A stretch of DNA of 64,000 nt from Candidatus Omnitrophota bacterium (lineage in GTDB: Bacteria; Omnitrophota; Gorgyraeia; Tantalellales; Tantalellaceae). The stretch is from the NCBI GenBank assembly GCA_016783605.1, contig JADHWG010000001.1:4712-68711 (forward strand). The letters are read 5' to 3'. The notes beneath the pieces are model-generated. The model had not been told where the DNA came from and did not search any database. It saw only the letters and a list, made by a program, of their open reading frames with translations. Positions within the stretch are counted from its first letter, which is position 1; each line of letters starts with the position of its first letter. A program made the translations under genes and the position numbers. Shown here in pieces: positions 3,549 to 62,855 of the stretch.

Positions 3549-3714
3549 TAGTTGTAAACAAAATACATCAAAATGGGCATATTTGAGGGATAAAGGGCAC
3601 GGCATGCCGTGCCCCTACGAAGTTGCGGGCGGAGTATAAATATTTTTGGTTGGGCATTGTTGAGATTGCTTCGTCCCCGGGGGACGCCTGCGGGGACGAA
3701 GCAATTTTTGGATG

Positions 3715-6700
3715 TTAGAGCGACGAATCGATCTGATCTATACAATCTTTCCAGTCGCTTCGATCTATTCTTTCCATTGGTATGCCGAGGAGAAGTGTTT
3801 CCAACACCAAACGCATTAAAGTAACCGCGGCGCCTATTTGGAGCATCCTTCTTTGCCCGGTTGGAATTTCATTATAGGAAAGCATCAGATATAAGTCTTT
3901 TATGTCAATATCCTGACTGTGCGTTACGGCTCGCATCAGCTTTTTTATGTCCTGAGCGAGAGTTTGTTCACCATTTTCCGCTTTTTGGACATCTTTAGGA
4001 GTGAGACATCCTTGGAGAATACCTATTCTTAAAGCAGTAGACGCGTATAGCCACCCTTTGCCGCTTAATCCTTCTATGTCGGGAAGAGACAAAATTCTTG
4101 TTTGTTTAAGTATGTCCTCCAATTTCTCAGGCATATCAAAATCGCTTTCAGGCTGTATAGCTGTAATATTTGATTCGGTCGCGAATAAAACGGGTATCCT
4201 TACGTCTTCAGGACTTTTCGAACTTAGACTGCTACTGAGCAAATTTACCACACTTTGCTGATCTAACCCTGCTTCACTATTGTATTCTTTAATCTTTACC
4301 GCTCCTTTACCGAAAAGTTTATCCAGATTCCGCTGAGTTTTTTCTTTGGAACCATCACCTGAAAGGCTATCAGAAAACATCTCTTTAGGAACGATAAGAT
4401 CGATCTTGTTTTTCTTTACGAGAGAAGCGTGTTTTTCTAGCATTTCGTATACGTTGTAAACAGCCTGTTCTCCTTCTGTATTAGCATAACTCGCCTCAAC
4501 AATAACTGTCTCACTATGCAAAGTCTTTTTAATCCAGTAGTCGTTAATTTCACGTACCGTGGGTGGTTTTCGGAAATGAAATTTTCTGCCGTCCGGACTC
4601 TCAATTATCAGTCTTCCTTCAATAGAATCCCCGTCTTCCCGAATATCCATGTTTACATCTATCACCTCTCCCGGTCCGAATACAACAATTTTTTCATCTT
4701 TATCCACAAGAAGATTATTGTTATTGATTTCGATCTCTACCGCGCCGCTCTTTACAACAAGCCTATGAGGTCTTTGCACTCCCCCATGTGTTATCCTCTT
4801 TGGCGGACGTTTCTTTTCACCATTAATCGTGATCACGTCCACTTCCTCGGATTTCAGACCATAATCTTTAATAACACCTCTTTCTTCGCTTGCAACAATA
4901 TTTGTTCCTCCTATTTTTTTGCCTTGTTTAAACGGTTTTGCAATTGGAATTTTTCTTTTCAGGGCGGGAACAAATATGTCCAGGATTTCCGCTTCTTGTT
5001 CTAACGTCTCAACTGATACGCTCTTCGCGGAAGCCGGGATCACAAGCAAGAATCCTCCTTTCGCTAAAGACACAATCTTTGCGGTTTTTATATCTCCCCT
5101 CGCGTCTGTAACAGAAATAGTCGCTGATCCTGTTTTAACAGCAAGGATGTGAAGTCCGTGTGTTGATTCCTCCGGTTCTTCCCCTAAAGATAAAACGTTT
5201 TTTCCGTCTGATTGTGCCATAATAATTCTGTCCATTCTGTAAGCACTCTTTACCAGAATGTTGAGTTCCACGCTATCCTTTTCTTGCAATTCTTTTACCC
5301 CCATTTCAGGAAACACAATACCGTTTTCCCGAATAGCGTCTTTGCCTAAAAGTTCTTCGGGAAAATATTTTAGCGCGCTCTTTAACTTCGACAGTGTGAT
5401 CGTCTTCGGCGCATCCGGTGATTCTAAGTTACATGCATCAATATCACCTTCGAGATCCAAATAAAACGGAGCCCCGTTTTTGATAGTTTCGGTTATCGTT
5501 GCGTCTATCCCTTCAGGTTCTTCTACATCTTCATAATATCCTTTTTGCCTGGCAAGCGGCGCGGCTTTTTGCGGTTCAGATTCATTCGCGGTCATTTCGG
5601 CGTGTACTGCCATTACTTCGTTGATCGGGGTAATAGCGGGCATATGTTTCCTGTCCGATATAATTTGAATTGTTTTCGCGAGATCATCATCAAGCTTTGT
5701 TTTTAAATTACTAACATTTGTCGAGCGGTATTCATACTCGGGAATGATCGCCTGTATCCCGGCTTTTTCCATATTTGCAATCTGCCGAGGAGCCGACACT
5801 GCTGTCGGGTCAATTACAGCATGTGTCACACCGGCTGATGCCAAAAATTCCGCCGGAATAATACCGGTATTGGATCCTGTTCCGCGTGTCGCGATATTAT
5901 CTTCGCGACCGTCGATCGTTATTATTTTTTTCTTTTCATCTGTCGTCGCGTCCCGGAATAACTCGCTCACGTCTTCACCGCGAAGTTCGCGAAGAGCCGC
6001 GTCAATGTGAAGCCGGGAAATACAATGAAAAATGTTCACTTTTTCAAGATCCACGCCGGCGTCTTCATAACCTTGTATCCACGGCATCCAGGGACCTTTT
6101 TCGTTTGCCTTAAAGTTGTACAAAAGATCGAGCCCGTCTTTTACACCCGCGGCAGTTTCGGCTAATTTAACCGCGTTCGCGAGGGTGTAAATATAGCGCG
6201 CGACAAACGCGCCGTTATAACCGGCGACCTCTACCATGCCTTCAATGATATCAGCCTTTGTTCCGCCGCCGTAAGAGATTTTCAATCTTTTTCGGTATTC
6301 TTCGCGCAGGTCTTCGATCATATTGTTCCACCAATCGCCTTTCCAAGCATCTTTATCTTTAAAAACATAGCCAAATAGTGTCGCAATATTTTCCGCCTGA
6401 GTTATCTCCATTTCCGAAGGCACTCCCAATTCCAAAAACACAGGTATCTGCTTTTCCAGACGGAATTTCGCGACCTTCTCATGAAGAGATGCTCCACGAA
6501 TCGCTTTAACAGGTTCATACGGATTTATAAACTGGTACAGAACGGTTTCTATCGGCACATTTTCGAACAGTATTTTTATCTGATAGTTTATCTCATAGAC
6601 CGTTGAAATTTCTTCTATGATGCGGCGTTTTACTTCATCTAAGTTATTCAGTATTACCTCGATTGTTTTGGCTATTGTACCTTGTTGGTCTATTATTTTT

Positions 6701-8607
6701 TGCGTGCTAAGATCATTCCACCTTAGATCGTATTCTAAAAACGACGCGTATTTGTCCTCTATCGCGCCTATAATATCCGGGGTCTCATTATTCTCCGCGG
6801 CTTCTTTTGTAACATCATCTACCAGTTTTTTAAATTCAGCCTCAAGTAAAGGCTTCAAAATACCGTAATACGCACCGTATTCTTTATGTGTTTTAATGCC
6901 TTCTATCTCATCAATCTTCTGTACCGCGTCGACCTCATGGCTTAAAGCCCACACAGCTTTCATATCTTCATCATTTGTCAGGTTTTTTTTCAACGCTATT
7001 TCATCCGGCGTAACAGGAAAGAAACGTAAACCTCTTTCATGGTATTCCTTGTCCGTCATAAAGTCACCCCAAGGTCCGACGATCCTATATGCGGCTTTTT
7101 GAAATAAATCTCTTTGCGCGCGTATCGCCACAATACCCATATTCAGATAATCCCTTACCTCAGAATGCCCGATAGCAACCAGCATAGGCGCGCCGACAGG
7201 AATATCATCCGGCGTCATATCAGGCGTGACTATTGTGACAGGTCCTATCGGATCCCACTGGTACCAAACTTCGTTATTGAATCCTTTCACGTGGTTAATT
7301 TTCTTATTTTTAAGCCACAGCTCCTCGAGGATTTCTTCAGCGTCATCAGGTTTCTTGCTGATGAGCGTGGCAAATTGCTCTACGGTAAAGGGCGTATGTT
7401 TACCAAATACCTTTGCCATTTCATAATATCCTTCAAGAGATCCATCGTCTACAACAATTGTCTGCGCTATTATCTCTTCATTTCTGCGAAATATGTCCTC
7501 AAATTTCTTTTCCTGTTTTCGGAGCGCGCTTAGCCTTGCCATGATGGGCCGGATATCCGAGCCCTGCTGATTATTTACCCATTCTTCTTCGCTTTTGAAG
7601 CCAAATGCCGCGATCGCGTCAGACGTCAGTGCTATTAAGCCAAGCGCAATTCGCGTATGAATGTCTTCATGCTGTGCTAAAACTATTTTTTCCGATTCTG
7701 TGAGACGGTCATACGATGATTCCCTCATGTAGTAGTATTCCTCCACGCTTTCCAGACTTCCATATTTTTCATACTGTTTTCTTGTCTCTCTGGTACCGGG
7801 ATGGCATTCAATATCACTCGGCGCTCCAGTTGATTCAATGTATTTTTCGTAAAGTTCATCCGGCAAAACGATAAAATATCCACCGGTTGCGTTGTCTCTC
7901 CTGCCATACATTTTCATAAATTCTTCTTGTATTTTGGCCTTACCATTTGTTCTAAAGCTTACACTTATTTGCCTCTTCAGGTCTTCAATTGTAAGCGTGA
8001 TCGCCAGATTTAGCCTACCGTGCTCCTCCCGCGTCAGCGGTTTATTTCGATTCGCTCCGGTTCGGGCATACCACTCACCCGCCGACCGGGTTGGAAGACC
8101 GGCTTTTCCCCTTGCCCTTATTCTAAACTTATCGAATTCAACTTTGACGCGCGTCCTTATTTCATTCGGAATGTTTTCTTTGCCAAGATTTTTTTCATAT
8201 TTTCCTAAAAAATCCGTAAAAATCGTTTCCCAATCTTTGTCGTTTTCTACGAGTTTCATCCATTCGCTGTGCGCTTCTTTTTCGCTCTCAAAGCTAGGTA
8301 TCATCTCTTTTTTCATCCCATCAAGATAGCTCTCTACACATTTCCCGGTTGCTTCTCTGATCTTGTCAAGAACTCCGTCTTTGCTAATATCCTTGAACCA
8401 CTCTTTCAGGTTTTTCTCTACATCTTTGTCGAGTACAATCCTACTCCCAAATCCGAATTTTAAAGCTGTCGAGAGAGTGTCTTGTGTAGATTCCGGAACG
8501 ACAGAAAAACGCTCTGCCGCGAAAGTCGTATTGCTAAAAGAAAAAGCCAAAACTAAAAAAAGGCTTATTGTTTTACAGAACGTTGATTGTTTGAAATTAC
8601 TTTTCAT
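3715..8607 (-). CDS. giant secreted protein (1630 aa), function unknown; contains an HExxH (HEDIH) motif
   Basis: Long uninterrupted ORF with an N-terminal signal peptide (LFLVLAFSFSNTTFA). No family was recognised by eye. It has a single zincin-like HEDIH motif. Confidence 0.7.
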   Translation of the reverse strand: MKSNFKQSTFCKTISLFLVLAFSFSNTTFAAERFSVVPESTQDTLSTALKFGFGSRIVLDKDVEKNLKEWFKDISKDGVLDKIREATGKCVESYLDGMKKEMIPSFESEKEAHSEWMKLVENDKDWETIFTDFLGKYEKNLGKENIPNEIRTRVKVEFDKFRIRARGKAGLPTRSAGEWYARTGANRNKPLTREEHGRLNLAITLTIEDLKRQISVSFRTNGKAKIQEEFMKMYGRRDNATGGYFIVLPDELYEKYIESTGAPSDIECHPGTRETRKQYEKYGSLESVEEYYYMRESSYDRLTESEKIVLAQHEDIHTRIALGLIALTSDAIAAFGFKSEEEWVNNQQGSDIRPIMARLSALRKQEKKFEDIFRRNEEIIAQTIVVDDGSLEGYYEMAKVFGKHTPFTVEQFATLISKKPDDAEEILEELWLKNKKINHVKGFNNEVWYQWDPIGPVTIVTPDMTPDDIPVGAPMLVAIGHSEVRDYLNMGIVAIRAQRDLFQKAAYRIVGPWGDFMTDKEYHERGLRFFPVTPDEIALKKNLTNDEDMKAVWALSHEVDAVQKIDEIEGIKTHKEYGAYYGILKPLLEAEFKKLVDDVTKEAAENNETPDIIGAIEDKYASFLEYDLRWNDLSTQKIIDQQGTIAKTIEVILNNLDEVKRRIIEEISTVYEINYQIKILFENVPIETVLYQFINPYEPVKAIRGASLHEKVAKFRLEKQIPVFLELGVPSEMEITQAENIATLFGYVFKDKDAWKGDWWNNMIEDLREEYRKRLKISYGGGTKADIIEGMVEVAGYNGAFVARYIYTLANAVKLAETAAGVKDGLDLLYNFKANEKGPWMPWIQGYEDAGVDLEKVNIFHCISRLHIDAALRELRGEDVSELFRDATTDEKKKIITIDGREDNIATRGTGSNTGIIPAEFLASAGVTHAVIDPTAVSAPRQIANMEKAGIQAIIPEYEYRSTNVSNLKTKLDDDLAKTIQIISDRKHMPAITPINEVMAVHAEMTANESEPQKAAPLARQKGYYEDVEEPEGIDATITETIKNGAPFYLDLEGDIDACNLESPDAPKTITLSKLKSALKYFPEELLGKDAIRENGIVFPEMGVKELQEKDSVELNILVKSAYRMDRIIMAQSDGKNVLSLGEEPEESTHGLHILAVKTGSATISVTDARGDIKTAKIVSLAKGGFLLVIPASAKSVSVETLEQEAEILDIFVPALKRKIPIAKPFKQGKKIGGTNIVASEERGVIKDYGLKSEEVDVITINGEKKRPPKRITHGGVQRPHRLVVKSGAVEIEINNNNLLVDKDEKIVVFGPGEVIDVNMDIREDGDSIEGRLIIESPDGRKFHFRKPPTVREINDYWIKKTLHSETVIVEASYANTEGEQAVYNVYEMLEKHASLVKKNKIDLIVPKEMFSDSLSGDGSKEKTQRNLDKLFGKGAVKIKEYNSEAGLDQQSVVNLLSSSLSSKSPEDVRIPVLFATESNITAIQPESDFDMPEKLEDILKQTRILSLPDIEGLSGKGWLYASTALRIGILQGCLTPKDVQKAENGEQTLAQDIKKLMRAVTHSQDIDIKDLYLMLSYNEIPTGQRRMLQIGAAVTLMRLVLETLLLGIPMERIDRSDWKDCIDQIDSSL

Positions 8608-9009
8608 TATTATTTTCCCCCTTCGGTTAAAAACACATAATACGCGTGAGATGATCCTGTTGAACTATCACAAAATCTTCCGCCATTATCTTTCTTTTTC
8701 TCGGAATAATGGGTTTGAAAAAATCTTTTTTAAACACCTTAAAATTGTCTTTCAGAAATCCTGTTTGCCTGAATCGGCTTGATCGCTTCGTACTAAGAAT
8801 GGGTTTTTTTGAGGTATACCAAAGCATGCGTTACTTCACTGTTGAGTTTATTCACATCACTACTAAAGCAAAAAACAACTACCTTCTTTCTAAAGTACCA
8901 AAAAGGGCAAAACAAATCAACCCTTTATTTCTAACTTTTTTTCGATAAACATTGAAGTTATAAGGGCACGGCATGCCGTGCCCCTACGAAGTGGTTGGCG
9001 ATATCCCCC

Positions 9010-9078
9010 ATTTAAATAGGGACGTCACCCATTTAATTAAGAGAACAAATTGAAAATGGGTGACGTCCCTATTTAATG
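9010..9078. repeat. long inverted repeat (25-bp arms: atttaaatagggacgtcacccattt / aaatgggtgacgtccctatttaat)
   Basis: Arms separated by ~18 nt. Shares the GGGACGTCACCC core with the hairpins that flank the HEPN/MNT pair. Confidence 0.6.
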
Positions 9079-9092
9079 AATATTCGCGTTTG

Positions 9093-9545
9093 CTAAAGCA
9101 AATCAGGGGTTATTTCCCATAACAGTTTCCATTTTTCTTGGTATTCGAGACAAATTATGCCGGAATGCTTAAAGGTGATGCTTTCATTTTCTTCGTTTTC
9201 GAAGAGCAAGAGGGAGGTGAGTTTTCGTAAAAACGGGAGGTGCCCCACGATCATTATGTCTCTTCTTACGGCTTCCAATTCTTCTTTGATCTTGGCAACT
9301 TCATCATTAGGATTCAGATCAACTCGTTCATTTATCTCCGTTTTTTCGATATATTCAGTGATTATTTGTACGGTTTCGATCGAACGCATCTTTTTACTGT
9401 GCCATATGCTCGCGACACTGATCTTTTCCGCTTTTATGAACCGTCCCATTTTCTGAGTTTCGTCTTTGCCTTCTTCACTTAAGGGTTTTTGAGGATCTTG
9501 CTCCTCCGTCAAAGAAAGCCCGTGTTGGATCAAATAAAGTTTCAT
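9093..9545 (-). CDS. sixA: phosphohistidine phosphatase SixA (histidine phosphatase superfamily)
   Basis: MKLYLIQHG…RHG-type catalytic motif, ~150 aa. I moved the start to the internal Met because the N-terminal extension in the ORF track reads through a repeat. Confidence 0.65.
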   Translation of the reverse strand: MKLYLIQHGLSLTEEQDPQKPLSEEGKDETQKMGRFIKAEKISVASIWHSKKMRSIETVQIITEYIEKTEINERVDLNPNDEVAKIKEELEAVRRDIMIVGHLPFLRKLTSLLLFENEENESITFKHSGIICLEYQEKWKLLWEITPDLL

Positions 9546-9664
9546 ATGTCTACCCCCCTCTTTAATAACGTTAAAAAACTTTCTCTCCCGGAACCACCTC
9601 GTAGGTGGAACCGGTTGTTCCACCTACGAGGTGGTTCCGGTAAAGGGCACGGCATGCCGTGCCC

Positions 9665-10420
9665 CTACGGGGTTGTATCGGGGTTTGGTTCTTCCCCGTC
9701 TTGTTTTGAGTGAACCATTGGAACAAATCTGACCGGCAGGAGTGTTTTTTTATTCACGCCCTCGGGTGTTTTTTCGATCAGACATAATTCTTGATGAAAA
9801 CTTCCGACGGGGACTATCATTTTGCCGCCGATTTTCAGCTGGTCTATCAATTCTTCCGGCACCTCCGGCGGCGCGGCGGTTATAACGATCGCGTCAAAAG
9901 GGGCGTATTCTTCCCAGCCTTTATATCCATCGCCGTATTTTACATGAACGTTGTCATATCCGAGTTTTTTTAGTCTTTCGCGAGCGGAATCGGCAAGCGG
10001 TTTCAATATTTCGACGCTATAGACATCTTTTACGATTTTTCCCAACACCGCCGCCTGATACCCGCATCCGGTCCCGATCTCAAGAACCCGCGTTTGGTCT
10101 TTCGGCTGAATTTGTTCTGTCATATAGGCGACAATGTACGGTTGGGAAATAGTCTGGCCATATCCGATAGGCAGCGGACAATCGCTGTACGCGGAGTTGA
10201 TCAAGTTTTCCGGCACGAACAAATGTCGTTTGACGCTCGACATCGCGTCCAAAACAGTTTTATCGGTAATGCCTCTGGCGACTATCTGTTCTTCCAGCAT
10301 TTTTTCCCTCATCTCATCAAGCGCTCCATTCTCGGCAATGGCAATAAATTCGCCCGCTGTAAAAGATAAAAGCAGACACATTATGCTAAGCAAAAAATTC
10401 ATCCTGATTTTTCGCTTCAT
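9665..10420 (-). CDS. pcm: protein-L-isoaspartate O-methyltransferase with N-terminal signal peptide
   Basis: SAM-binding motif VLEIGTGCGYQAAVL and the PCMT family C-terminal region. I moved the start to MKRKIR because the track start (MHLRGAIG) is a translation of a palindromic repeat. Confidence 0.8.
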   Translation of the reverse strand: MKRKIRMNFLLSIMCLLLSFTAGEFIAIAENGALDEMREKMLEEQIVARGITDKTVLDAMSSVKRHLFVPENLINSAYSDCPLPIGYGQTISQPYIVAYMTEQIQPKDQTRVLEIGTGCGYQAAVLGKIVKDVYSVEILKPLADSARERLKKLGYDNVHVKYGDGYKGWEEYAPFDAIVITAAPPEVPEELIDQLKIGGKMIVPVGSFHQELCLIEKTPEGVNKKTLLPVRFVPMVHSKQDGEEPNPDTTP

Positions 10421-10549
10421 TTTTGCCTGCTCTTTCGTTTCGCCAAAACTTAACAGCCTTTCATCCCAACTCTTCACCACCCCGATTGCACCTCGTAGGT
10501 GCAATCGGTTGCACCTACGAGGTGCAATCGGGGTGGTGCGAAGGTTTTG

Positions 10550-10708
10550 TTAAAACAATGTATATATGAACGGGGCTACTGCTGATGATTCCGTAAAAAT
10601 GATCAATAATCCCAAAAATATGAGGATTACGATAATCGGCAGAAGCCACCATTTTTTTCTCACTTTTAAAAAATCCCACAATTCTTTCATTATTTCCATT
10701 TTTCCCAT
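10550..10708 (-). CDS. DUF5989 / SxtK-like small membrane protein (52 aa)
   Basis: Manual translation in an alternative frame gives MGKMEIMKELWDFLKVRKKWWLLPIIVILIFLGLLIIFTESSAVAPFIYTLF, the hallmark W..FL..RKKWWL.P…APFIYTLF signature of this family. It lies directly downstream of the SxtJ-like gene. The track instead lists an overlapping spurious ORF (10515..10769). Confidence 0.55.
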   Translation of the reverse strand: MGKMEIMKELWDFLKVRKKWWLLPIIVILIFLGLLIIFTESSAVAPFIYTLF

Positions 10709-10741
10709 GAGAATCCCTTTCTATTCTAAACACCCAAACCA

Positions 10742-10800
10742 AAACACCAACCTCGTAGGTTACTACCAACCTACGAGGTTGGTAGTAACCTACGAGGTTG
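10742..10800. repeat. family-B palindrome cluster (three CCTACGAGG units)
   Basis: aacctcgtaggttactaccaacctacgaggttggtagtaacctacgaggttgg. Confidence 0.7.
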
Positions 10801-10818
10801 GTGTTTTGGTTATTTTAC

Positions 10819-11223
10819 CTAAAACTGTTTTGTCAAATTTTCTTTGGACGGTTTTGTTTGTTTTCTCGTTATCCAATAACTTTTCGCGTTTCTATCGAGT
10901 TTCGCGTCCAATATGTCTTTTCCGAAAATGCGCATCACAAGACCTATCGGAGTAAGTATAGCATAATATACTACTGTCAGGATAATTCTGGTATTCACCC
11001 ATCCTATCGCGTGAGCAACTTTTGTAAACACCTTAAAGACCGGTTTAAGTTTCATCGGAAAAAATATTCCGAATATTAGAGAAACCGCCGAAACAGAAAA
11101 AAACCATTTGTACGCGGTTTGATGATGTTTTAAAAAATGGATGGTGCCGAAAACGCACAGGATCATCCCCAAAACTATTCCGAATTGTCTTAGATCTTTT
11201 TTTTGAACTTTTTTCATAAACAT
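10819..11223 (-). CDS. SxtJ-like small membrane protein
   Basis: 134 aa with 3 transmembrane helices and a …VLGWVNTRIILTVVYY…TPIGLVMR… signature, in the typical position after a carbamoyltransferase gene. Confidence 0.55.
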   Translation of the reverse strand: MFMKKVQKKDLRQFGIVLGMILCVFGTIHFLKHHQTAYKWFFSVSAVSLIFGIFFPMKLKPVFKVFTKVAHAIGWVNTRIILTVVYYAILTPIGLVMRIFGKDILDAKLDRNAKSYWITRKQTKPSKENLTKQF

Positions 11224-11234
11224 CCTACCCGCTC

Positions 11235-13064
11235 TTAATCCAGTTCAAATTCCTCAATTTCTTCTATTCTGAGTCGTTCCCGCGGCTGTTTCTTTTTATC
11301 AACAATGAACGAACCCATAACAAGATAATCCATGTTCGTTCTCATAAAACATTTGTACGCGTCACGCGGGGTACAAACTATCGGCTCCCCCCGCACGTTG
11401 AAAGAAGTGTTAATGACCAAAGGAGATGAATGGTTCTCATCCAGCTTCTTCATCATATCATAATATACCGCGTTATCTTCTCGTTTAACCGTTTGAACTC
11501 TCGCCGAATAATCAACATGTGTTATTGCCGGCACGGTGGATCTTTTAATTTTGAGCTTATCAAGACCTTTGAATTCACTTGTTCCTTCATTCGAAATACG
11601 TTGATTTCCCGCAACAGGCGCGACTATCAACATATAGGGACTTCCGCCTTTTAGTTCGAAATATTCTTCCGTTTCTTCTTCGAGAATACTCGGAGCGAAA
11701 GGTCTGAAAGATTCTCTGAATTTTATCTTCCGGTTGATCAATGACTGCATTTCTTGACTTCGCGCGTCGCCCAGAATGCTTCTGGCGCCAAGCGCGCGCG
11801 GACCGAACTCCATTCTGCCTTGAAACCAACCGACAACTTTCTGCTGTGCGATCAACGCCGCGGTCACTTCCGGCAAAACGTCTCGTTCCACTTTTTCGTA
11901 AGGAATATCGTTTTCAGTAAGAAATTTCTCTATTTTTCCATCACTAAATGATGGGCCTAAAAGACTCGCTTTCTGACTATCTTTATTTTCTTCTCGAGGG
12001 CGGCTTCCTTTAAGATATTCACACCACCCGATGAACGCCGCGCCTATCGCGCCGCCGGCGTCTCCGGAAGCCGGTTGTATCCACATGTTCTCAAAAGGTC
12101 CGTCTCTTAGCAACTTTCCGTTTGCCACGCAGTTTAACGCCACACCTCCCGCTAAACATAAATTGCGGAGGTGAGTTTTTTCTTGAACATATTTCGCCAT
12201 GTTCATAATAACTTTTTCAGTAACAACCTGAACGGATCTTGCCAGATCCATGTGTCTTTCGGTTAAATCGCTTTCTTTCTTGCGCGGAGGCGCACCGAAA
12301 AGCTTGTCAAACTTCTTATTGGTCATCGTAAGACCGGTGCAATAATTAAAATACTTCATATTCAGCTTGAAAGACCCGTCTTCTTTCAAGTCTATCAAAT
12401 TGTCCAGGATCTTGTCCACATACTTGGGCTCTCCGTAAGGAGCGAGCCCCATAAGTTTATATTCACCGGAATTAACTTTAAACCCGCAATAATATGTGAA
12501 TGCCGAGTATAAAAGTCCTAAAGAATGCGGGAACCTTATTTCTTCCAAAAGTTCTATGCCGTCGGAGTTACCTTTTCCGAAACTGACAGTTGTCCATTCA
12601 CCGACACCGTCAACCGTCAAAATTGCCGCTTCGTTAAAAGGAGAAGGATAAAACGCGCTTGCCGCGTGAGAATGATGATGTTCCGGAAAAATGATCTCGC
12701 CTTTATATCCCAAAATATCCCGGATATGTTCTTTCATGAAAAGTTTCTGTTTTATCCATGGAGGCATCGCGGATAGAAAGCTTTTTACCCCAAAAGGCGC
12801 GTAAGCTAAATACGTCTCCAATATTCGTTCAAATTTGATAAACGGTTTATCATAAAAAGCGACTATATTGACGTCCTTGATGGAAATACCGGCCTCTTCC
12901 AAACAATATTGTACGGCTCGCTCCGGGAACGACGGATCGTGTTTCTTTCGAGTAAATCTCTCTTCCTGCGCCGCGGCAAGAATTTCTCCGCCGGCGATAA
13001 GCGCCGCCGCGGAATCATGATAAAACGCTGAAATGCCCAATATATACGTCTTTTTTCCGTCCAT
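11235..13064 (-). CDS. NodU/CmcH-family carbamoyltransferase (SxtI-like)
   Basis: 609 aa with an N-terminal Kae1/YrdC-like ASKHA domain (ILGISAFYHDSAAAL), internal HHxSHAASAF, and a C-terminal carbamoyltransferase domain. Confidence 0.85.
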   Translation of the reverse strand: MDGKKTYILGISAFYHDSAAALIAGGEILAAAQEERFTRKKHDPSFPERAVQYCLEEAGISIKDVNIVAFYDKPFIKFERILETYLAYAPFGVKSFLSAMPPWIKQKLFMKEHIRDILGYKGEIIFPEHHHSHAASAFYPSPFNEAAILTVDGVGEWTTVSFGKGNSDGIELLEEIRFPHSLGLLYSAFTYYCGFKVNSGEYKLMGLAPYGEPKYVDKILDNLIDLKEDGSFKLNMKYFNYCTGLTMTNKKFDKLFGAPPRKKESDLTERHMDLARSVQVVTEKVIMNMAKYVQEKTHLRNLCLAGGVALNCVANGKLLRDGPFENMWIQPASGDAGGAIGAAFIGWCEYLKGSRPREENKDSQKASLLGPSFSDGKIEKFLTENDIPYEKVERDVLPEVTAALIAQQKVVGWFQGRMEFGPRALGARSILGDARSQEMQSLINRKIKFRESFRPFAPSILEEETEEYFELKGGSPYMLIVAPVAGNQRISNEGTSEFKGLDKLKIKRSTVPAITHVDYSARVQTVKREDNAVYYDMMKKLDENHSSPLVINTSFNVRGEPIVCTPRDAYKCFMRTNMDYLVMGSFIVDKKKQPRERLRIEEIEEFELD

Positions 13065-13179
13065 ATTTACCGCTAAACCCTTCTTGACCGCCCGTATTTT
13101 GAACTGTATTATATCTTACAACAAACCACAATTACAAGCCTTGTTTTACCTCCCCCAAACACCCCACCCCCTTCGACAA

Positions 13180-13270
13180 CCTCGTAGGGGCACGGCATGC
13201 CGTGCCCTTTACCACACAAATCACAAATCCCATGAGGGCACGGCATGCCGTTCCCCTACGAAGTTGGTGG
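13180..13270. repeat. BIME-like composite (family-B half-site, REP-A, 28-bp linker, REP-A) in the divergent promoter region
   Basis: caacctcgtaggggcacggcatgccgtgccctttaccacacaaatcacaaatcccatgagggcacggcatgccgttcccctacg. Confidence 0.8.
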
Positions 13271-13346
13271 TGATAAGTGACTGGGCAAGTGATTCTGTTA
13301 AATATTCTTGCTTTTCAGGTTCTAAAAATGTAGACTTGTCTCGGAC

Positions 13347-15005
13347 ATGCATATGAATCTCATAAAATACACTCTAAAATTATTGCGAATTCGGGCAAAC
13401 GCGTTTGAGAAAAACACCAAAGATCCCATTAAAGCGCAGAAAAGGGTTCTTCTGGAGTTTCTTTCTCGTAACCGCAAAACAGAATATGGCTCAAAATATG
13501 GGTTTGGCAACATAAGATCCATCGATGAATACCGGCGGCGCGTTCCTCTAACCGATTATGAAAAACTTCGCCCTCTTGTGGAAAGAATAGCAAAAGGGGA
13601 ACACAACATTCTGACAAAAGACGATCCGGTTTTTTTCAGCATCACAAGCGGCTCGACCGGAAAACCAAAACTCGTTCCCGTAACAAAATATTCCAAAACA
13701 AAAAACGCCCGCGTCATAAACTTGTCAGCGTATTATGTCACACATGATCACCCGAATATTGTTACGGGAAAAATACTCGCGATAGTAAGCCCTGAAATCA
13801 GCGGATATACCCCCTCCGGCATACCTTACGGCGCTGAAAGCGGACATGCTTATAAAAATCTTCCGGGCGCTATAAAAGGTGCTTATTCTCTCCCGTATGA
13901 AGTTTTCGAGATAGACGATTATGACGCGCGTTATTACACCATACTTCGCGTCTCAATGGAACACGATATAACGATCATCGCCACTATGACCCCAAGCACA
14001 ATAATTCTTCTTTGCCAACTGATAGAAAAAGTGCGGGATGACGTTATTGAGGACATTCGAAACGGAACCATTAAAAAAAGCTTAAAGATATCGCCTCCTC
14101 TCAGAAAAGCTTTGGAAAATCAGTTTAAACCCAATTCGAAAAGAGCGAATGAACTTACAAAAATCTTAAAAGAAAAAGGTTCGCTTCTGCCGAAACATTT
14201 CTGGGGCAATCTTCAAGTGATAGAATGCTGGAAACGCGGTTCAATGGAGTTATATCTAAAAAAATTTCCAAAATATTTTGGAAACGTAGCAATCCGCGAC
14301 TTCGGATATTTTTCCAGCGAAATGCGTAGTTCCGTTCCCATGAAAGATGAAGGCGCCGAAGGCGTTTTGGCTATTACGACCAATTTTTACGAATTTATTC
14401 CCCGGGAAGATAAAAACAAAGAAGAAAAAAGAGTGCTTTTATGTAATCAACTGGAGAAGGGGCAGGAATATTTCATCGTGCTCACAACGCCCGGCGGATT
14501 ATGCCGATATAACATCGACGACATGATAAAAGTTACAGGTTTTTTTAATAAAACTCCCATAATCGAGTTTGTTCAGAAAGGAACCAGCGTCACTTCCGCG
14601 GTCGGTGAAAAACTCTATGAATCTCAAATAGTCGAAGCTGTAAAAATCGCGACCGCTAGATTAAATGTGCCGCTTGAACTTTTTGTAGCGGTCGTGGAAT
14701 GGGCGGATTCCGCGCGATACGCTTTTCTAGTGGAATTTATTGAAGACGCAACACAGGAAAAGAAAAAAGAACTTCTGCTCGCTATCGAAAAAGAACTTTG
14801 CCGATTAAATGAGGAATACGATTTTAATAGAACTTCCCAAGAACTAGCGCATCCTGTTTTAAAAGTGCTCGCCCGCGGCAGTTTTGAAAAATTCAGAACG
14901 ACAAAAATAAAAGAAGGCGCCCACGACAGCCATTTCAAACTCCCGCAACTAACTTCAGATCAAACTTTTCAGAAAAATTTCGATATTATTGAAGAAATCG
15001 ATTAG
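13347..15005 (+). CDS. GH3-family adenylate-forming acyl-acid amido synthetase-like protein
   Basis: 552 aa with an SGSTGKPKLVPVT AMP-binding-like motif and the family N-terminal region. Divergently transcribed from the carbamoyltransferase operon. Confidence 0.7.
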   Translation: MHMNLIKYTLKLLRIRANAFEKNTKDPIKAQKRVLLEFLSRNRKTEYGSKYGFGNIRSIDEYRRRVPLTDYEKLRPLVERIAKGEHNILTKDDPVFFSITSGSTGKPKLVPVTKYSKTKNARVINLSAYYVTHDHPNIVTGKILAIVSPEISGYTPSGIPYGAESGHAYKNLPGAIKGAYSLPYEVFEIDDYDARYYTILRVSMEHDITIIATMTPSTIILLCQLIEKVRDDVIEDIRNGTIKKSLKISPPLRKALENQFKPNSKRANELTKILKEKGSLLPKHFWGNLQVIECWKRGSMELYLKKFPKYFGNVAIRDFGYFSSEMRSSVPMKDEGAEGVLAITTNFYEFIPREDKNKEEKRVLLCNQLEKGQEYFIVLTTPGGLCRYNIDDMIKVTGFFNKTPIIEFVQKGTSVTSAVGEKLYESQIVEAVKIATARLNVPLELFVAVVEWADSARYAFLVEFIEDATQEKKKELLLAIEKELCRLNEEYDFNRTSQELAHPVLKVLARGSFEKFRTTKIKEGAHDSHFKLPQLTSDQTFQKNFDIIEEID

Positions 15006-31508: not shown

Positions 31509-31547
31509 TTTTGTCATCCCCGCTTAGCGCCTGCGGGGACAAGCTTG
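31509..31547. repeat. family-D palindrome (ttgtcatccccgcttagcgcctgcggggacaagcttg)
   Basis: Second copy at 40062..40098; related hairpin at 3662..3708. Confidence 0.6.
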
Positions 31548-33107: not shown

Positions 33108-33283
33108 GTCCTTCTCCTTCTTACTTCGGTCTGTCTCGCATTTTACGCGATTAAAAATTTTGATACACTCAAAATCATCGCGCGCAAAAAGACGTAACCG
33201 TTTTAATGTTAAAATCGCATTATAACTGAACGATTATTATATAAAAAATCAGCATAAATTCAAGCAAAATATGCTTTTTTGTC

Positions 33284-33413
33284 GTAGGGGCACGGCATGC
33301 CGTGCCATTTACCGCACCAATCATCGATCCAATGAGGGCACGGCATGCCGTGCCATTTACCGCACCAATCATCGATCCAATGAGGGCACGGCATGCCGTG
33401 CCCCTACGAGGTT
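33284..33413. repeat. BIME-like array: three REP-A palindromes (GGGCACGGCATGCCGTGCC) separated by an identical 28-bp linker
   Basis: Cores at ~33288, 33336 and 33384; linker atttaccgcaccaatcatcgatccaatga. Its 'spacers' are identical, so it is not a CRISPR. Confidence 0.8.
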
Positions 33414-35251: not shown

Positions 35252-35454
35252 ATGTATTCACCTTACGTTATAATACTCGGGAAAATCCTTAAACCCAGAT
35301 ATTGCATTAGAACATGGCGAAGAATGCAATATCTGGGTTAAACATAACTGGTAAATCTTAGCACACATGCCCGCTATTGTCGAGAATTTCAGCATCCCCC
35401 ACCCAACACCCAATGCTAACTTTTATTATCTTAACCCACCTTGCTGGCAACTTC

Positions 35455-35535
35455 GTAGGGGCACGGCATGCCGTGCCCTTTATCACACAAATCACCAATC
35501 CCATGAGGGCACGGCATGCCGTGCCCCTACGAGGT
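35455..35535. repeat. BIME-like composite: REP-A, linker tttatcacacaaatcaccaatcccatga, REP-A, fused to a family-B half-site
   Basis: The same architecture recurs at 13180..13270. Confidence 0.8.
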
Positions 35536-41487: not shown

Positions 41488-41553
41488 ATTCGGGCACATG
41501 CAATGTGCCCCTACAATTCGGGCAAATCTATTCGGGCACATGCAATGTGCCCC
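41488..41553. repeat. family-C palindromes, two copies (TTCGGGCACATGCAATGTGCCC)
   Basis: Also present at 48496..48557 (two copies) and 49309..49330. Confidence 0.75.
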
Positions 41554-41736
41554 CACAATTTGTTTTGGCCGCCAAGCGGACCCATGTGTCCGCCCGCCTT
41601 GCTATCCCGGGATCTCGTATGTCCCCAACAATAGTTTAGTTTGAACACCTAAATATACGCATACACAAAGGCCAACACCTCGCTTCTTGAGAATATTGGC
41701 CTTTATAAATTTTTGGCTTCGGTTGTTTTTATTTTT

Positions 41737-47855: not shown

Positions 47856-47885
47856 AGTTAATTGAGGGCACGGCATGCCGTGCCC

Positions 47886-48434
47886 CTACGAAATCGGCAT
47901 ATTCGTTCTATCTTCACGAATCCACATTTGGGCGGCTTGGGAGGCATTTTGTATCGCTTCTTTTATTTGAGCTCGTTCTCCGCGCGGGAAAGACGCCAAT
48001 ACATACGAAGAGGTGTCTCCGGTAACCGCCGCGCCTATCCCAACCCTAAGTCTGGCGAAATCAGGTCCGATTCTATCAATTATTGATTGAAGCCCGTTAT
48101 GTCCGCCCGCGCTCCCCTTTTCACGAAACCTTATGCTTCCAAGCGGAAGATTAAAATCGTCGCTTATCACCAATACGTCTTTCGCCTTATCTTCGGCTTT
48201 AGACGCGAGAACCGCGTTTACCGCTTCTCCGGACAAATTCATGTATGTTGACGGCCTAAACAGCATCACTTCCCGTCCTTTTACACGTCCAATCCCATAT
48301 GTCCCGTTAAAACCTTTTTTCCCAAGCCGAATTCTATGCGTTTCGGAAAGAGTTTTGATCACCATAAATCCGACATTGTGTCTTGTGTTTCTATACCGCA
48401 ATCCCGGATTTCCTAATCCAACAATGATTTTCAT
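47886..48434 (-). CDS. pth: peptidyl-tRNA hydrolase
   Basis: N-terminus MKIIVGLGNPG…RHN. I moved the start to the internal Met. Confidence 0.85.
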   Translation of the reverse strand: MKIIVGLGNPGLRYRNTRHNVGFMVIKTLSETHRIRLGKKGFNGTYGIGRVKGREVMLFRPSTYMNLSGEAVNAVLASKAEDKAKDVLVISDDFNLPLGSIRFREKGSAGGHNGLQSIIDRIGPDFARLRVGIGAAVTGDTSSYVLASFPRGERAQIKEAIQNASQAAQMWIREDRTNMPIS

Positions 48435-51856: not shown

Positions 51857-51953
51857 CTTTCTGTTTCCTTAAGTTCCCACCGATAATTGGCTACCCGATG
51901 CTGTCCATAGCCTAATTTCAAACATCAATTTTGTCAACTATTTGAGGGGTCGG

Positions 51954-52064
51954 GGAGTTTTTCGACCCCTCATCCTGAAGCCCAAAGGGCTGAAGGATCT
52001 CTATAGATCCTTCGCTTCGCCCAAGATGACACCTTTGCAAGAGGGGAAAACTCCCCGACCCCTC
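51954..52064. mobile_element. MITE-1, copy 3 (111 bp internal-deletion variant; TSD AACTATTT)
   Basis: Same TIRs; 8-bp direct repeats at 51946..51953 and 52065..52072. Confidence 0.75.
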
Positions 52065-52237
52065 AACTATTTATCAAAATGCCCATCCGTCGCTACAGAA
52101 GCGATTTTATAAAATTGGAGTGAAATTTTATTTGACAAATAGTGTTCTTTCATGTACACTTTACGTAGGATTTGATTCAAGGGACTGGGGATTCCCGGTC
52201 GGCAAAAAGCTCTGACGTAAGTCGGAGCTTTTTGTTT

Positions 52238-53812: not shown

Positions 53813-54748
53813 TCAGTACGTACTTACCACACATATCCGCCAATTTTCTTCTTTCGGAAATGCGCCAAGAAGTCTCTTCTCCGCCTGCCGCACAACCTCC
53901 TCGTCAAAAATCCCAAAAACAGTAGAACCGCTTCCGGATAAAAGAGTACCAAGCGCGCCGGCACCTTCTAATTCACGAAACACCTTTTTTAAAACGGGAA
54001 ATTCTCGTAATACTATTGGCTGTAAATCGTTATGAAGATTTTTTGCCAAACTCCCGCTGTTTTTATCCTCCAAAAAAGCGCTGAACATTCTATCAAGGGC
54101 TATATCCTTTGTCAAGCCAAAAGGGGAAAAGCGCCCGTATACGTCTTTTGTTAAGATTTTAAACGGCGGTATTACAAGCACATGCCAAATTTTGCGTTCA
54201 AACTCGAGTTTCGTAATAATGTCTCCGCGACCCTTTCCGCAGGCGAAGTTCGCGTCATTCAAAAAAAAAGGAACATCCGCGCCCAACTTGCCGGCAATGT
54301 CCAAAAGTGAGGTTTTGTTAAGCTTCTGCCCCGTTATTTTGTTCATCGCGCGCAATATCGCCGCGGCATCACTGGAACCTCCACCTAGTCCGCCGCCGGA
54401 AGGAATGTTCTTTTTAAGCTTAATAATAAAATTGTCGTTAACGGCGGCCTTTTCCTTAAAAAGCCTGACCGTGCGGCCCATTAAACTGTCGGAACAAACC
54501 GGAATGGACGGATCGTCACATTCGATCCGGATGCCGGTATCAGTTTCATCACCCCCGATTCCACCTCGTAGGTGGAACTCGTTCCACCTACGAGGTGGAA
54601 TCGGGGTACGATCATCAATTACATCAATGTTGATCTCGTCACAGAGTGAAATTTTTTCGAAGATCGTCTCGATGGAATGATATCCATCATTCCTCTTATT
54701 GAGAACTCTTAAGAATAGGTTCACTTTGGCAGGCGCGGTAATAAACAT
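53813..54748 (-). CDS. ispE: 4-diphosphocytidyl-2-C-methyl-D-erythritol kinase with an in-frame 18-codon palindromic-repeat insertion
   Basis: GHMP kinase motifs (APAKVNLFL; PSGGGLGGGSSDAAA). The segment …PIPPRRWNEFHLRGGIGG… is the translation of a family-B double hairpin (54548..54602). I moved the start to MFITAPAKV. Confidence 0.75.
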   Translation of the reverse strand: MFITAPAKVNLFLRVLNKRNDGYHSIETIFEKISLCDEINIDVIDDRTPIPPRRWNEFHLRGGIGGDETDTGIRIECDDPSIPVCSDSLMGRTVRLFKEKAAVNDNFIIKLKKNIPSGGGLGGGSSDAAAILRAMNKITGQKLNKTSLLDIAGKLGADVPFFLNDANFACGKGRGDIITKLEFERKIWHVLVIPPFKILTKDVYGRFSPFGLTKDIALDRMFSAFLEDKNSGSLAKNLHNDLQPIVLREFPVLKKVFRELEGAGALGTLLSGSGSTVFGIFDEEVVRQAEKRLLGAFPKEENWRICVVSTY

Positions 54749-54831
54749 GATGTATGTCCTTATATAAACGAATGATCTATGGAGATCCTTCGCTTCGCTC
54801 AGGATGAGGGGTCGAGAAATACCCCGCCCCC

Positions 54832-55779
54832 TCATTTACGTTTTAACAGATCTTCCATTTCCCTTACGATATCATCCACCCGCAGCCCGAAATGTTCATA
54901 CAATTCGTCCGGAGCGCCGCTTACTCCAAATTTTCCCTTTATGCCCATAAGCTTCATAGGACAAGGCTTTTCCTGAACGATCACTTCCGCGACAGCGCTT
55001 CCCAGCCCGCCATAAACGGTATGTTCTTCCACTGTCAAGATCGCCCCGGTTTCTTCCGCCGCGTTTATTATTGTTTCCTTATCGATCGGACACGGTGTGT
55101 GCAAATTTATTACACGGATATTTATTCCTTTAGATTTCAAAACTTCCGCCGCTTCGATCGCGCTTGTAACCAAATGCCCGCACGCGACTATCGTAGCATC
55201 GTTTCCCTCGGTCACGACATCCGCTTTACCTATCTTAAATTCCGATGTTCGTTTTAATATCGGAACTTTGACGCGTCCCAATCTGATATATACGGGCCCG
55301 GGTATATCCGCCGCCTGGAGAGTCGCTAAATTCGCCTCTTCAGAATCTGCCGGAACGACAACCGTCATATTCGGAATGATCCTCATAAGCGCGATCTCCT
55401 CCAACGCTTGGTGGGTCGCCCCGTCTTCTCCGACTGAAATTCCTCCGTGACTTCCGATAATATTCACATTCAAATTCATGTATGCCACCGACACTCTGAC
55501 CTGATCCCACGCGCGTCCGGAAGCAAACGCTCCGAACGTACACGCGAACGGTATCTTTCCCGAAAGCGCCAGTCCCGCCGCCGCGCATATCATATCCTGT
55601 TCGGCTACACCATGACTGATAAAACGCTCCGGATATTTTTCTTTAAACCAATTGGCTCTCACCGATTCCGTTAGATCCGCGGATAAAACAACTACATCTT
55701 TATTGGTCCGCCCCAAGTCAAGTAAAGCTTTCCCGAATCCGTCCCTGGTTGCCTCGCGCTCCGCACCTTTTTCTTTCAT
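54832..55779 (-). CDS. transketolase, C-terminal (pyrimidine-binding) subunit
   Basis: Split-type transketolase C-half of 315 aa. Confidence 0.85.
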   Translation of the reverse strand: MKEKGAEREATRDGFGKALLDLGRTNKDVVVLSADLTESVRANWFKEKYPERFISHGVAEQDMICAAAGLALSGKIPFACTFGAFASGRAWDQVRVSVAYMNLNVNIIGSHGGISVGEDGATHQALEEIALMRIIPNMTVVVPADSEEANLATLQAADIPGPVYIRLGRVKVPILKRTSEFKIGKADVVTEGNDATIVACGHLVTSAIEAAEVLKSKGINIRVINLHTPCPIDKETIINAAEETGAILTVEEHTVYGGLGSAVAEVIVQEKPCPMKLMGIKGKFGVSGAPDELYEHFGLRVDDIVREMEDLLKRK

Positions 55780-55919
55780 TCATAACTCCCAATTTTATGT
55801 TACACGCTGCAGGTTTCAGGTTTCAGGTTTTCCCGCCGGAGGCGGGTCCGCCTCCGGCGGGAAACCTGAAACCTGAACCGTGTAACATGCAACGTATTCA
55901 CCAGCCAACTATCAACCGG

Positions 55920-58635: not shown

Positions 58636-58724
58636 CCGCCGGCGATCAAAATTGACGACGCGCCTTTCGCCGGCAACCTCGTAGGGGCACGGCGTGCCGT
58701 GCCCCTACGTTGATTATCCGATCC

Positions 58725-58905
58725 GTTTTTTCTCTTTGTCAATTAATCGGACAAGGCAGGCCTTGTCCCTACGAACAATATAAAACATACCCAACAAATC
58801 GTAGGGGCCGGGCCTGCCCGGCCCTTTTATCCCCATCATCATTGATAACCTTTATGTGTTGGTGCCATTATAAACGGTTACCTGAATTGTGACAATATAC
58901 ACCCT
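58725..58905. mobile_element. MITE-2, 5'-truncated copy, flanked by a 35-bp duplication of the transketolase-N 3' end
   Basis: Right TIR ggttacctgaattgtgacaat is present and the left TIR is absent. Direct repeats ttgattatcc(g/a)atccgttttttctctt(t/c)gtcaa lie at ~58711..58745 and ~58906..58940. Confidence 0.65.
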
Positions 58906-61289: not shown

Positions 61290-61487
61290 TTAAGTTATAC
61301 CTTTCTCTTCTTGTGCCGGTCTCTTCTCATTCTTTTTTTCCGTTTATGTCTTTTAACTTTTTTTATTTTTCTTTTCTTCCCACAGGGCATGCCGTTTCCA
61401 CCTCCTTAAATCGGCTGTAACATAGTAGGGTACAGACATGCCTGTACCTACCCTATTAACGGACAAGCACAGGGGCCTGTCCCTTGT

Positions 61488-61752
61488 ATATTGTCACAAT
61501 TCAGGTAACAAATCGATAGTGACCGGGGGGCCACCCGACCATTTTATCCCCTCTTCAATTAATCGGACAAGGCAGGCCTTGTCCCTACGAATAATATAAA
61601 GCATATCACAACAAATCGTACGAATAATATAAAACATGCCACAACAAATCGTAGGGGCCGGGCCTGCCCGGCCCTTTTATCCCCATCATTATTGATAACC
61701 CTTATATGTTGGTGTCATTATAAACGGTTACCTGAATTGTGACAATGTACAC
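61488..61752. mobile_element. MITE-2, complete copy (~265 bp; TIR ATTGTCACAATTCAGGTAAC)
   Basis: Left TIR tattgtcacaattcaggtaac and right TIR gttacctgaattgtgacaatgtaca. Internal conserved blocks aattaatcggacaaggcaggccttgtccctacga and gtaggggccgggcctgcccggccc. Confidence 0.75.
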
Positions 61753-61757: not shown

Positions 61758-62636
61758 CTAATATATCACCTTGTTTAACGGATATTCTATGAATCCTTCC
61801 GCGCCGGCTTTTCTTAGGCGCGGGATCAGTTTTTTTAGCGTCTCTTCATCTATAACCGTTTCGATATCCACCCATTTTTCGTCAAAAAGCATGGAAACGG
61901 TCGGAGTTTTTATCGCCGGAAGGATCTTTATTATCTTTTTCACGTCAACTTTCCTGGCGTTCATTTTTAGACCTACTTTTCCTTCGGCAAGGATAGCTCC
62001 CCTCAGAAGCAAAGTTATTCGCTCTATCTTTTCTTTTTTCCACGCGTCCCTCCACGCCTTCTTGTTGGCAATAAACCGCGTGGTTGATTCGCAAACGGTC
62101 TCCACGATCTTTAAGTCATTAGCTCTAAGACTGTTACCGGTTTCGGTCACCTCAACGATCGCGTCTATGCCCATTTTGGGTTTGACTTCCGTCGCTCCCC
62201 AACTGAACTCCACTTCCGCTTTTACGTTTTTTTTTCGAAGAAACCGCTTGGTGACATTAACCAGTTCCGTCGCCACTTTTTTCCCTTTGAGATCTTTTAC
62301 GCCTTTAATACTCGAACCTTTAAGCACCGCGAGAACCCACTTAACCGGTTTCATACTTTGTTTCGCATAAACAAGTTCCGCCACTTTTTTTACATCCGAA
62401 GAATTCTCTTCTATCCAGTCATTCCCCGTTATCCCGCAATCGATGATCCCGTCTTCGACATAACGAGACATTTCCTGCGCTCTAAACAGAATCACCTCTA
62501 TCTCATCATCATCGATATCCGGGAAATACGACCTTGAAGATATTTTGATCTTATATCCCGCTTTATCGAACAGTCTTACCGTGGCTTCCTGAAGGCTCCC
62601 TTTTGGAATGCCTATTTTTAATACTTTTTTACTCAT
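61758..62636 (-). CDS. hisG: ATP phosphoribosyltransferase (long form)
   Basis: [11 protein letters not shown]-terminus; 292 aa including the C-terminal regulatory domain. Confidence 0.85.
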
Positions 62637-62855
62637 GATTTATCCTCACTTTTCGAACTTTTTAGATATGGACATAGTCCTACCGCCCGTATTGTCGTAT
62701 ACGAAAGTTTCCGTGTCAATTGTATATCAATCCCGGATTATAGTCAATAGACTTGTATGGATGCAGCATACTGTGCTCTTACAAATTTTTTGGCATAATG
62801 TACCAAAGAAAACGACAATTATCCGTAGGGGCACGGCATGCCGTGCCCTAATTAT

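Follow-up and report, generated by a model that had tools for sequence, protein, structure and literature searches.

The spaces between genes in a 64-kb stretch of chromosomal DNA from Candidatus Omnitrophota (64,000 nucleotides of contig JADHWG010000001.1, analyzed whole and hereafter called the window) hold several co-occurring families of short palindromes. These repeats belong to a known class, the GTAG-tagged repetitive extragenic palindromes (REPs) and their doublets forming hairpins (REPINs) of the subclass 2.4 RayT type, now met in Omnitrophota. With considerable confidence, we attribute the spread of these GTAG-tagged REPs and their composite forms to a REP-associated tyrosine transposase (RAYT) encoded elsewhere in the genome, which for the family termed REP-A would most likely be an enzyme of subclass 2.4. 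This reading draws on the anatomy of the units and their foot, intergenic placement dispersed over the window, dimers that fold as single hairpins, a constraint on the core sequence, variable occupancy of spacers among relatives, and other genomes in which the same core is physically associated with RayT. An earlier note on this DNA, made from its letters, had proposed REP-like families dependent on a RAYT beyond the window; it was correct in kind, as the GTAG foot and the link of the same core to RayT genes elsewhere indicate. Comparisons with published systems refer throughout to excerpts of the papers cited.

The REP-A core is a 20-bp perfect palindrome, GGGCACGGCATGCCGTGCCC. Allowing at most one mismatch, 13 copies (9 exact) occur in the window, compared with 0.01 expected from 100 dinucleotide-preserving shuffles. 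They fall into nine loci spanning 3595-62848 (~59 kb), each between open reading frames (ORFs) and with flanking sequences unrelated from one locus to the next (Table 1). The sites thus number nine and not at least 12, as stated earlier. CGTAG marks the left edge and/or CTACG the right edge of each locus, the full unit being a GTAG-footed hairpin, (CAACCT)CGTAG-core-CTACG(AGGTTG). The tail is longer than the CTACG noticed before: the foot extends to an 11-nt consensus, CAACCTCGTAG / CTACGAGGTTG, common to several cores. The 30-nt double-foot hairpin reaches -17.5 kcal/mol (z = -5.4). Over the composite arrays, the window agrees at 100% identity with two independent assemblies, an ENA contig (L120) and a Logan contig (L121), the latter of which terminates within the REP-A triplet; the repeats are thus real, and their arrays break short-read assemblies. 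ENA assembly ERZ24794672 contains the same strain.

Inverted REPs that are separated by a short conserved spacer and fold into one hairpin, as defines a REPIN, were found at three REP-A loci, all of them at the places given in the earlier note and one of them the triple array that had already been described. In the terms of Di Nocera and of Bertels & Rainey, these core-linker-core composites are head-to-head dimers (REPINs). Feet are confined to the outer ends of dimers and triplet alike. As single-stranded DNA (ssDNA), each dimer forms a single hairpin whose halves pair across the linker (-36 to -38 kcal/mol; z = -8 to -10). The triplet has a 48-bp period and units that are 100% identical, i.e., a direct tandem, which is most simply the duplication of a single 48-bp core-plus-linker unit and could have arisen by slippage or unequal exchange between identical cores. 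The two linkers of the triplet are identical, and those of different loci share 79-93% identity; the conserved 28-bp linker reported earlier fits the two dimers, but the triplet departs from it at 6 of the 28 linker positions. Differences affect 4 of 260 core positions versus 8 of 56 linker positions (Fisher p = 1.7e-4), which indicates that something acts on the core sequence itself.

The earlier note had likened these arrays to the bacterial interspersed mosaic elements (BIMEs) of Escherichia coli, a parallel that does not hold: in BIMEs, Y REPs take turns with Z REPs and the linkers are of two types, whereas a REP-A array consists of a single palindrome and a single linker repeated in one orientation. 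The BIME feature, two REP types in alternating orientation, fits only a tail-to-tail composite absent from that note, in which two different REPs (GGACAAGG.. / GGGCCGGG..) and a conserved ~31-nt linker recur at three loci and resemble BIME-1. What the window does share with E. coli REPs/BIMEs and their transposase TnpA_REP (RayT/YafM) is the joining of REPs by conserved linkers and a GTAG guide beside the hairpin. A further mark of the E. coli type is binding by IHF, DNA gyrase or Pol I.

The REP-A core extends far beyond this genome. An exact-20-mer scan of 185,579 species genomes (596 Gb), whose counts cover the matches listed and are lower bounds, retrieved at least 119 stretches from ~104 assemblies (counted by accession prefix) in at least 20 phyla, compared with ~0.5 to 3 matches expected by chance from base composition. 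Hosts listed include Acidobacteriota, Chloroflexota, Planctomycetota, Omnitrophota, Hydrogenedentes, Pseudomonadota, Cyanobacteriota, Nitrospirota, Bacillota, Deinococcota, Myxococcota, Verrucomicrobiota, Gemmatimonadota, Desulfobacterota and one Methanosarcinales metagenome-assembled genome (MAG); two of them, Nostoc foliaceum and Iodobacter sp., are isolates. G+C content at the host loci ranges from 0.39 to 0.73. Among the 133 external copies listed, 111 (83%) carry GTAG and/or CTAC (21 both, 42 GTAG only, 48 CTAC only) and 22 neither; conservation of the flanks is limited to these four adjacent bases. Dimers and arrays recur elsewhere with lineage-specific spacers (periods of 45, 46, 85, 90, 99 and 137). 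The 20-mer is also present in 18 IMG/VR contigs. One stretch classed as viral (L133, IMGVR_UViG_3300017593_001354) bears five REP-A cores in 7.8 kb, and RayT was not detected in that stretch. The double-foot 30-mer had no match among PLSDB plasmids and INPHARED phages, and the exact 20-mer and its translated peptides were unmatched in a literature text search.

Several of these genomes show a physical link between the identical core and RayT genes. One locus (L143) is a REPtron, with a GTAG-core-26 nt-core-26 nt-core-CTAC triplet that matches the architecture of the window triplet, followed by a RayT gene with an embedded copy and then by two dimers. In an Acidobacteriota stretch (L056), two GTAG-core-~117 nt-core-CTAC dimers adjoin a Y1_Tnp ORF. 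A RAYT flanked by REP-A, which the earlier note had suggested seeking, thus does exist, in other genomes and not in the window. Elsewhere (L021, L065, L141, L144, L145), a 28-30-bp double-foot palindrome lies in frame in RayT, just past the HUH motif. A REP embedded in the RayT coding sequence is no new finding, since Quentin 2018 (PMC6006769) reported in-frame insertions between HuH and Y for subclass 2.4, together with long and 'double foot' REPs.

A protein search with the L021 product retrieved at least 7988 homologues, under the JGI name 'REP element-mobilizing transposase RayT'. In the best 120 of these, the segment past PNHxHGIxxI reads RGTACRAPT in most, a share discussed below as inflated, and VGARHAVPL in ~10. 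Both peptides are readings of one DNA, in two different frames, at an identical place past HUH, as checked on the DNA of L141 and L145, and other homologues among the 120 encode different GTAG palindromes there (e.g., VGAKNFSPL). The RayTs that carry or flank the REP-A core elsewhere are ~200 aa long with PNHVH, VWQRNYYEH and YIMDNP motifs; judged by NHVH, WQ, YIxDNP and length, they agree with TnpA_REP subclass 2.4 (Bertels group 4), described as having NH[IFV]H, WQ and YIxNNP motifs, ~194 aa and a variable insert after HuH (Quentin 2018, PMC6006769).

Some features of these transposase loci stand apart from this assignment. RayT genes lie within restriction-modification clusters in L143 (7091-16374), L145 (7023-13490) and also L146; in L145, an N6_N4 methyltransferase gene ends, and a ResIII helicase gene begins, within stretches shared with RayT, and double-foot REPs lie in frame in both of these neighbours. 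RayT homologue P0001 and homologues P0005-P0012 appear ~90% identical by eye outside one segment (69-77% overall when computed), the embedded REP (RGTACRAPT versus VGAKNFSPL) and the next ~20 residues being what differs. This pattern looks like a cassette swap, with the REP covarying with adjacent protein sequence.

The window elements would be nonautonomous, relying on a HUH/Y1 RAYT (TnpA_REP) encoded elsewhere both to disperse them and to keep the copies alike. If this enzyme works as TnpA_REP and IS200/IS605 transposases reportedly do (PMC3479197, PMC8266576, PMC6006769), RayT would bind the folded hairpin and the GTAG foot on ssDNA, with GTAG serving as guide and cleavage site, and would then cut and rejoin. 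By analogy, IS200/IS605 elements (IS608, ISDra2) presumably share HUH/Y1 chemistry on ssDNA hairpins and a tetranucleotide beside the hairpin foot that marks the site. Unlike them, REPs do not themselves encode a transposase, RAYTs usually occur as a single copy, and the present elements are known from sequence alone.

Several points weigh against RAYT-driven dispersal. The cognate RAYT of this genome is assumed: phmmer searches and a hidden Markov model built from 120 homologues (E ≤ 1) detected no Y1/RAYT ORF in the 64 kb, as the earlier note had already stated. The 22 external copies noted above lack a foot. Since protein searches seed on shared 5-residue words, the proportion of RGTACRAPT among the top hits is inflated. 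The Pth|S6 and GFO|MsbA spacers have diverged too far from those of a relative to yield a clean empty/filled pair with exact boundaries. Scanning metagenomes for the REPIN linker yielded one contig (L122; G+C content, 0.52), which is devoid of a REP core and was discarded as a chance match to a degenerate pattern, uninformative on copy number. Finally, hairpins without a GTAG foot, namely family D and a type with a 17-bp stem, may be unrelated to the GTAG families.

The anatomy can be set beside three published systems. Members of the GTAG-REP superfamily (Di Nocera 2013, PMC3733652) are likewise palindromic units of 20-40 bp with terminal GTAG, and the excerpts describe head-to-head dimers, conserved spacers, tandem-reiteration clusters, stop codons provided by the TAG of the foot, in-frame intragenic copies and families coexisting per genome. 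REP-A differs in being a perfect loopless palindrome, oriented by its foot alone; it may or may not be one of the 24 GTAG families published there (PMC3733652). With the subclass 2.4 REPs of Quentin 2018 (PMC6006769), the window shares a stem bottom of three G-C pairs (GGG..CCC in REP-A), a GT[AG]G foot, double-foot GTAG..CTAC copies (here at 58680-58709) and a patchy spread over many phyla, which the excerpts call patchy and suggestive of horizontal gene transfer. Unlike the subclass as excerpted, abundant in Cyanobacteria and Bacteroidetes, the present host is an Omnitrophota bacterium, its 11-nt extended foot is common to several cores, and the system is known here from REPs alone. Pseudomonas fluorescens REPINs (Bertels & Rainey 2011, PMC3116915) also combine inverted REPs and a short conserved spacer into one long hairpin, and their singletons resemble decayed or half doublets. 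According to the excerpts, that REPIN-RAYT system is mostly vertical and lineage specific and relies on RAYT groups 2/3, not group 4, whereas the REP-A core crosses phyla.

As excerpted, the GTAG-REP/RAYT literature compared here states neither one exact 20-mer in >100 genomes of at least 20 phyla, nor several cores with a common 11-nt foot in one genome, nor fixed-linker arrays recurring across unrelated genomes. We regard the shared 20-mer, the common foot and the recurring arrays as leads rather than demonstrated novelties. Our findings place REP/REPIN biology in Omnitrophota, an uncultured phylum, and provide a compact case: within 64 kb there are singletons, REPINs, amplified arrays, heterodimers and in-frame insertions, as well as feet that donate stop codons. 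The exact core across phyla and the in-frame RayT copies suggest a horizontally moving REP lineage, at variance with the usual vertical, lineage-specific picture; such a lineage, if true, would help explain assembly breaks at these sites. A bolder and rather doubtful extension is that REP-A might be a single pan-prokaryotic REP 'species' travelling with subclass 2.4 RayT, whose in-gene master copy would seed populations after horizontal transfer, with one foot-reading RayT propagating several cores here. If so, this would explain how an identical GTAG-footed 20-mer came to reside in >100 genomes, which belong to at least 20 phyla and range from 0.39 to 0.73 in G+C content, and several hairpin cores would have propagated together in this Omnitrophota genome thanks to one RayT reading chiefly the 11-nt foot.

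The hairpins might instead be immobile structural or regulatory elements selected by the host (3'-end mRNA stabilizers, attenuators, or nucleoid-protein or gyrase sites), a role that is compatible with a RAYT origin and that we judge unlikely as the explanation of these repeats. Genes in the window lie almost all on the minus strand, and the elements sit between codirectional genes; the TAG of the foot doubles as the stop codon of two of them, Pth (47886) and an ORF ending at 9665. Transcribed copies are predicted to form very stable hairpins, effects on transcripts are plausible, and REPs elsewhere are reported, in the excerpts at hand, to be active in 3' untranslated regions. A terminator role, also raised by the earlier note, found no support for REP-A: none of the 13 copies has a T-run after the stem, the tails reading TTTA.., TCAT.. 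or the foot, and the intrinsic-terminator reading was rejected on that ground. A both-strand scan of positions 1-20000 for terminator-like stem-loops, covering 5 of the 13 copies, listed no REP-A core; the sole listed site overlapping REP-A (13243-13230, minus strand) spans the core into the linker. Rfam models at gathering thresholds detected three tRNAs only in the window, and the repeats match no RNA family.

Comparison with relatives bears on the same question. JGI contigs of one relative (L147-L150) share ~78% nucleotide identity with the window and have a G+C content of 0.43. Contig L147 carries double-foot REP-A at 2363 and 4202, a partial copy at 5641, family C at 1144 and 2424, and a B-type palindrome at 2336; in the window, other elements occupy the orthologous spacers. 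Its Pth|S6 spacer lacks the REP-A and the MITE (a miniature transposable element with inverted repeats) of the window, and its GFO|MsbA spacer has just a solo CAACCTCGTAGGTT at the position of the window REPIN. This solo motif and the window copy at 58668-58713 hint that insertions might lie 3' of GTAG. A more distant Omnitrophota MAG (L151; G+C content, 0.37) is free of these elements over 13 kb of synteny. Variable spacer occupancy of this kind would be expected if mobile elements were gained and lost, and the differences in occupancy, including those of L151, argue for element turnover. Against host selection stand spacers that hold other families or none in the relative, and a B-type copy in frame within a coding gene, where it adds ~23 residues to an IspE-like kinase (54553-54607) that are missing in the L147 orthologue. 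A locally selected site also leaves unexplained the same core, over the G+C range given above, alongside RayT genes. Host function may be a secondary layer; taken by itself, it fails to account for turnover, for the copy within a gene and for a core that is identical across phyla.

A mover other than a RAYT, be it a MITE transposase or recombination and slippage alone, seems distinctly improbable for the palindromes. Its appeal lies in two MITE families bounded by terminal inverted repeats (TIRs) that co-occur in the window, one of them enclosing the tail-to-tail REP pair, in the triplet being a plain 48-bp tandem duplication, and in the missing RAYT. REP-A, however, has no TIRs beyond its own stem, its identical core lies in or beside RayT genes elsewhere, and the sole flank conserved across phyla is the GTAG foot, described in the excerpts as a RAYT recognition and cleavage motif (PMC3733652, PMC6006769). 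Mobilization by another enzyme is thus possible for the TIR-bounded MITEs and unlikely for REP-A. The 48-bp regular spacing at three loci could also recall a local segmental duplication, an assembly artifact or an array of minisatellite or CRISPR type rather than a dispersed family, a reading that retains next to no probability given nine loci with unrelated flanks over 59 kb, independent assemblies identical over the arrays, a core found in >100 other genomes, and 'spacers' that are identical within the array and near-identical between loci, i.e., not the unique ones of a CRISPR array.

Both TIR-bounded families can be delimited. The MITE-like family (~153 bp; 21-bp TIRs, AATTGAGGGGTCGGGGAGTTT) occurs at 47711-47863, 50444-50596 and 51936-52072, with a fragment at 54770-54841; two copies are 98% identical, and one adjoins REP-A. 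The second element (23-bp TIRs, TACATTGTCACAATTCAGGTAAC) is 227-263 bp long and carries the tail-to-tail heterodimer at 1357-1583 and 61487-61749, thus housing two of the three such pairs. Partial copies lie at 58723-58899 (right part) and 63955-64000 (left end), with a solo end at 1279-1301.

Table 1. Palindromic repeats mapped in the 64-kb window, with starts of cores or copies where listed
Feature	Position	Strand	Starts	Basis or remarks
REP-A singleton, CTACG foot (GTAG on - strand)	3595..3619	-	3595	core 3595-3614; intergenic
REP-A singleton, CTACG foot	8964..8988	-	8964	intergenic
REP-A singleton	9645..9669	-	9645	adjoins B-type palindrome ~9587-9640; foot TAG is stop of ORF 9665-10504 (-)
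REP-A head-to-head dimer (REPIN)	13183..13260	.	13188, 13236	CGTAG-core-28 nt linker-core-CTACG; folds as single hairpin
REP-A triplet	33283..33408	.	33288, 33336, 33384	three cores, two identical 28-nt linkers; GTAG/CTAC feet at outer ends alone
REP-A head-to-head dimer (REPIN)	35454..35531	.	35459, 35507	94% identical to the 13183-13260 dimer
REP-A singleton	47866..47890	-	47866	abuts MITE right end; foot TAG is stop of Pth ORF 47886-48473 (-)
Double-foot REP-A	58680..58709	.	58685	CGTAG-core-CTACG, 30-nt hairpin; core variant, G at position 10
REP-A singleton, CGTAG foot on + strand	62824..62848	+	62829	core match
Tail-to-tail heterodimer	1434..1508	.		(degenerate) GGACAAGGCAGGCCTTGTCC-CTACG, ~31 nt, CGTAG-GGGCCGGGCCTGCCCGGCCC; inside TIR element 1357-1583
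Tail-to-tail heterodimer, same two REP types	58749..58824	.		BIME-1-like composite
Tail-to-tail heterodimer	61565..61674	.		33-nt duplication in linker; inside TIR element 61487-61749
B-type palindrome, foot-built (..CACCTCGTAGGTG.. / ..CACCTACGAGGTG..)	10480..10534	.		repeat and foot match
B-type, further members	845-895, 9587-9640, 10745-10800, 17535-17565, 19917-19945, 31439-31469, 39992-40034	.		repeat and foot match
B-type monomer	50315-50331	.		repeat and foot match
B-type palindrome, in frame within IspE-like gene (53813-54835, -)	54553..54607	.		without counterpart in relative's orthologue
Family C (GGGCACATGCAATGTGCCC, foot CTAC/CCAC), tandem pair	41492..41556	-	41492, 41534	repeat match
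Family C, further copies	48498-48514, 48538-48558, 49312-49335		48498, 48538, 49312	repeat match
Family D hairpin (TCCCCGC..GCGGGGA, TGTC/CGTC-like flank, without GTAG foot)	31517..31539	.	31517	repeat match
Family D, further copies	40068-40090; 3665-3705 (variant)		40068, 3665	repeat match

Other families complete the repertoire. The 11-nt foot of REP-A also bounds GTTGAAC, GTGCAA.. and GTGGAA.. cores, the 'B' palindromes, at ten places, and GGGCCGGGCCTGCCCGGCCC, GGACAAGGCAGGCCTTGTCC and family C carry a related foot. The B-type hairpin at 17535-17565 overlaps the final codons and the stop of serS (17547-18860, minus strand). The counts given previously for family C (five copies) and family D (three) were both reproduced. 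Family D recalls the CGTC-tagged REP superfamily, which has terminal CGTC/TGTC, a stem of 8-9 bp opening with A-T pairs and a 4-5-nt loop. It does have TGTC/CGTC beside a 7-bp stem, but the loop is 9 nt and the leading A-T pairs are absent; by this resemblance, family D may or may not be a CGTC-type REP. A G+C-rich hairpin with a 17-bp stem (TTTCCCGCCGGAGGCGGG..), without a GTAG foot, is present in two copies (50374-50409 and 55829-55864) and may be the 'family H' of the earlier note.

The setting is chromosomal, with housekeeping genes (serS, dnaB, bamA, lpxC/I/B, msbA) and a DnaB 79-93% identical to Omnitrophota MAG proteins. Repeat-family members occupy 17 of the 29 spacers of at least 80 bp, a density well short of the near-complete occupancy claimed before, and none of the occupied spacers falls within the low-G+C 20-30 kb stretch. 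The segment at ~20000-28000 (G+C content, 0.37, versus 0.41-0.46 elsewhere in the window) is free of any repeat-family member and may have been recently acquired. A 1630-aa ORF on the minus strand (3715-8607) has no NCBIfam match. A perfect 82-bp tandem duplication (29795-29958) adjoins a tRNA gene (29962-30034), and the ENA contig ends within it.

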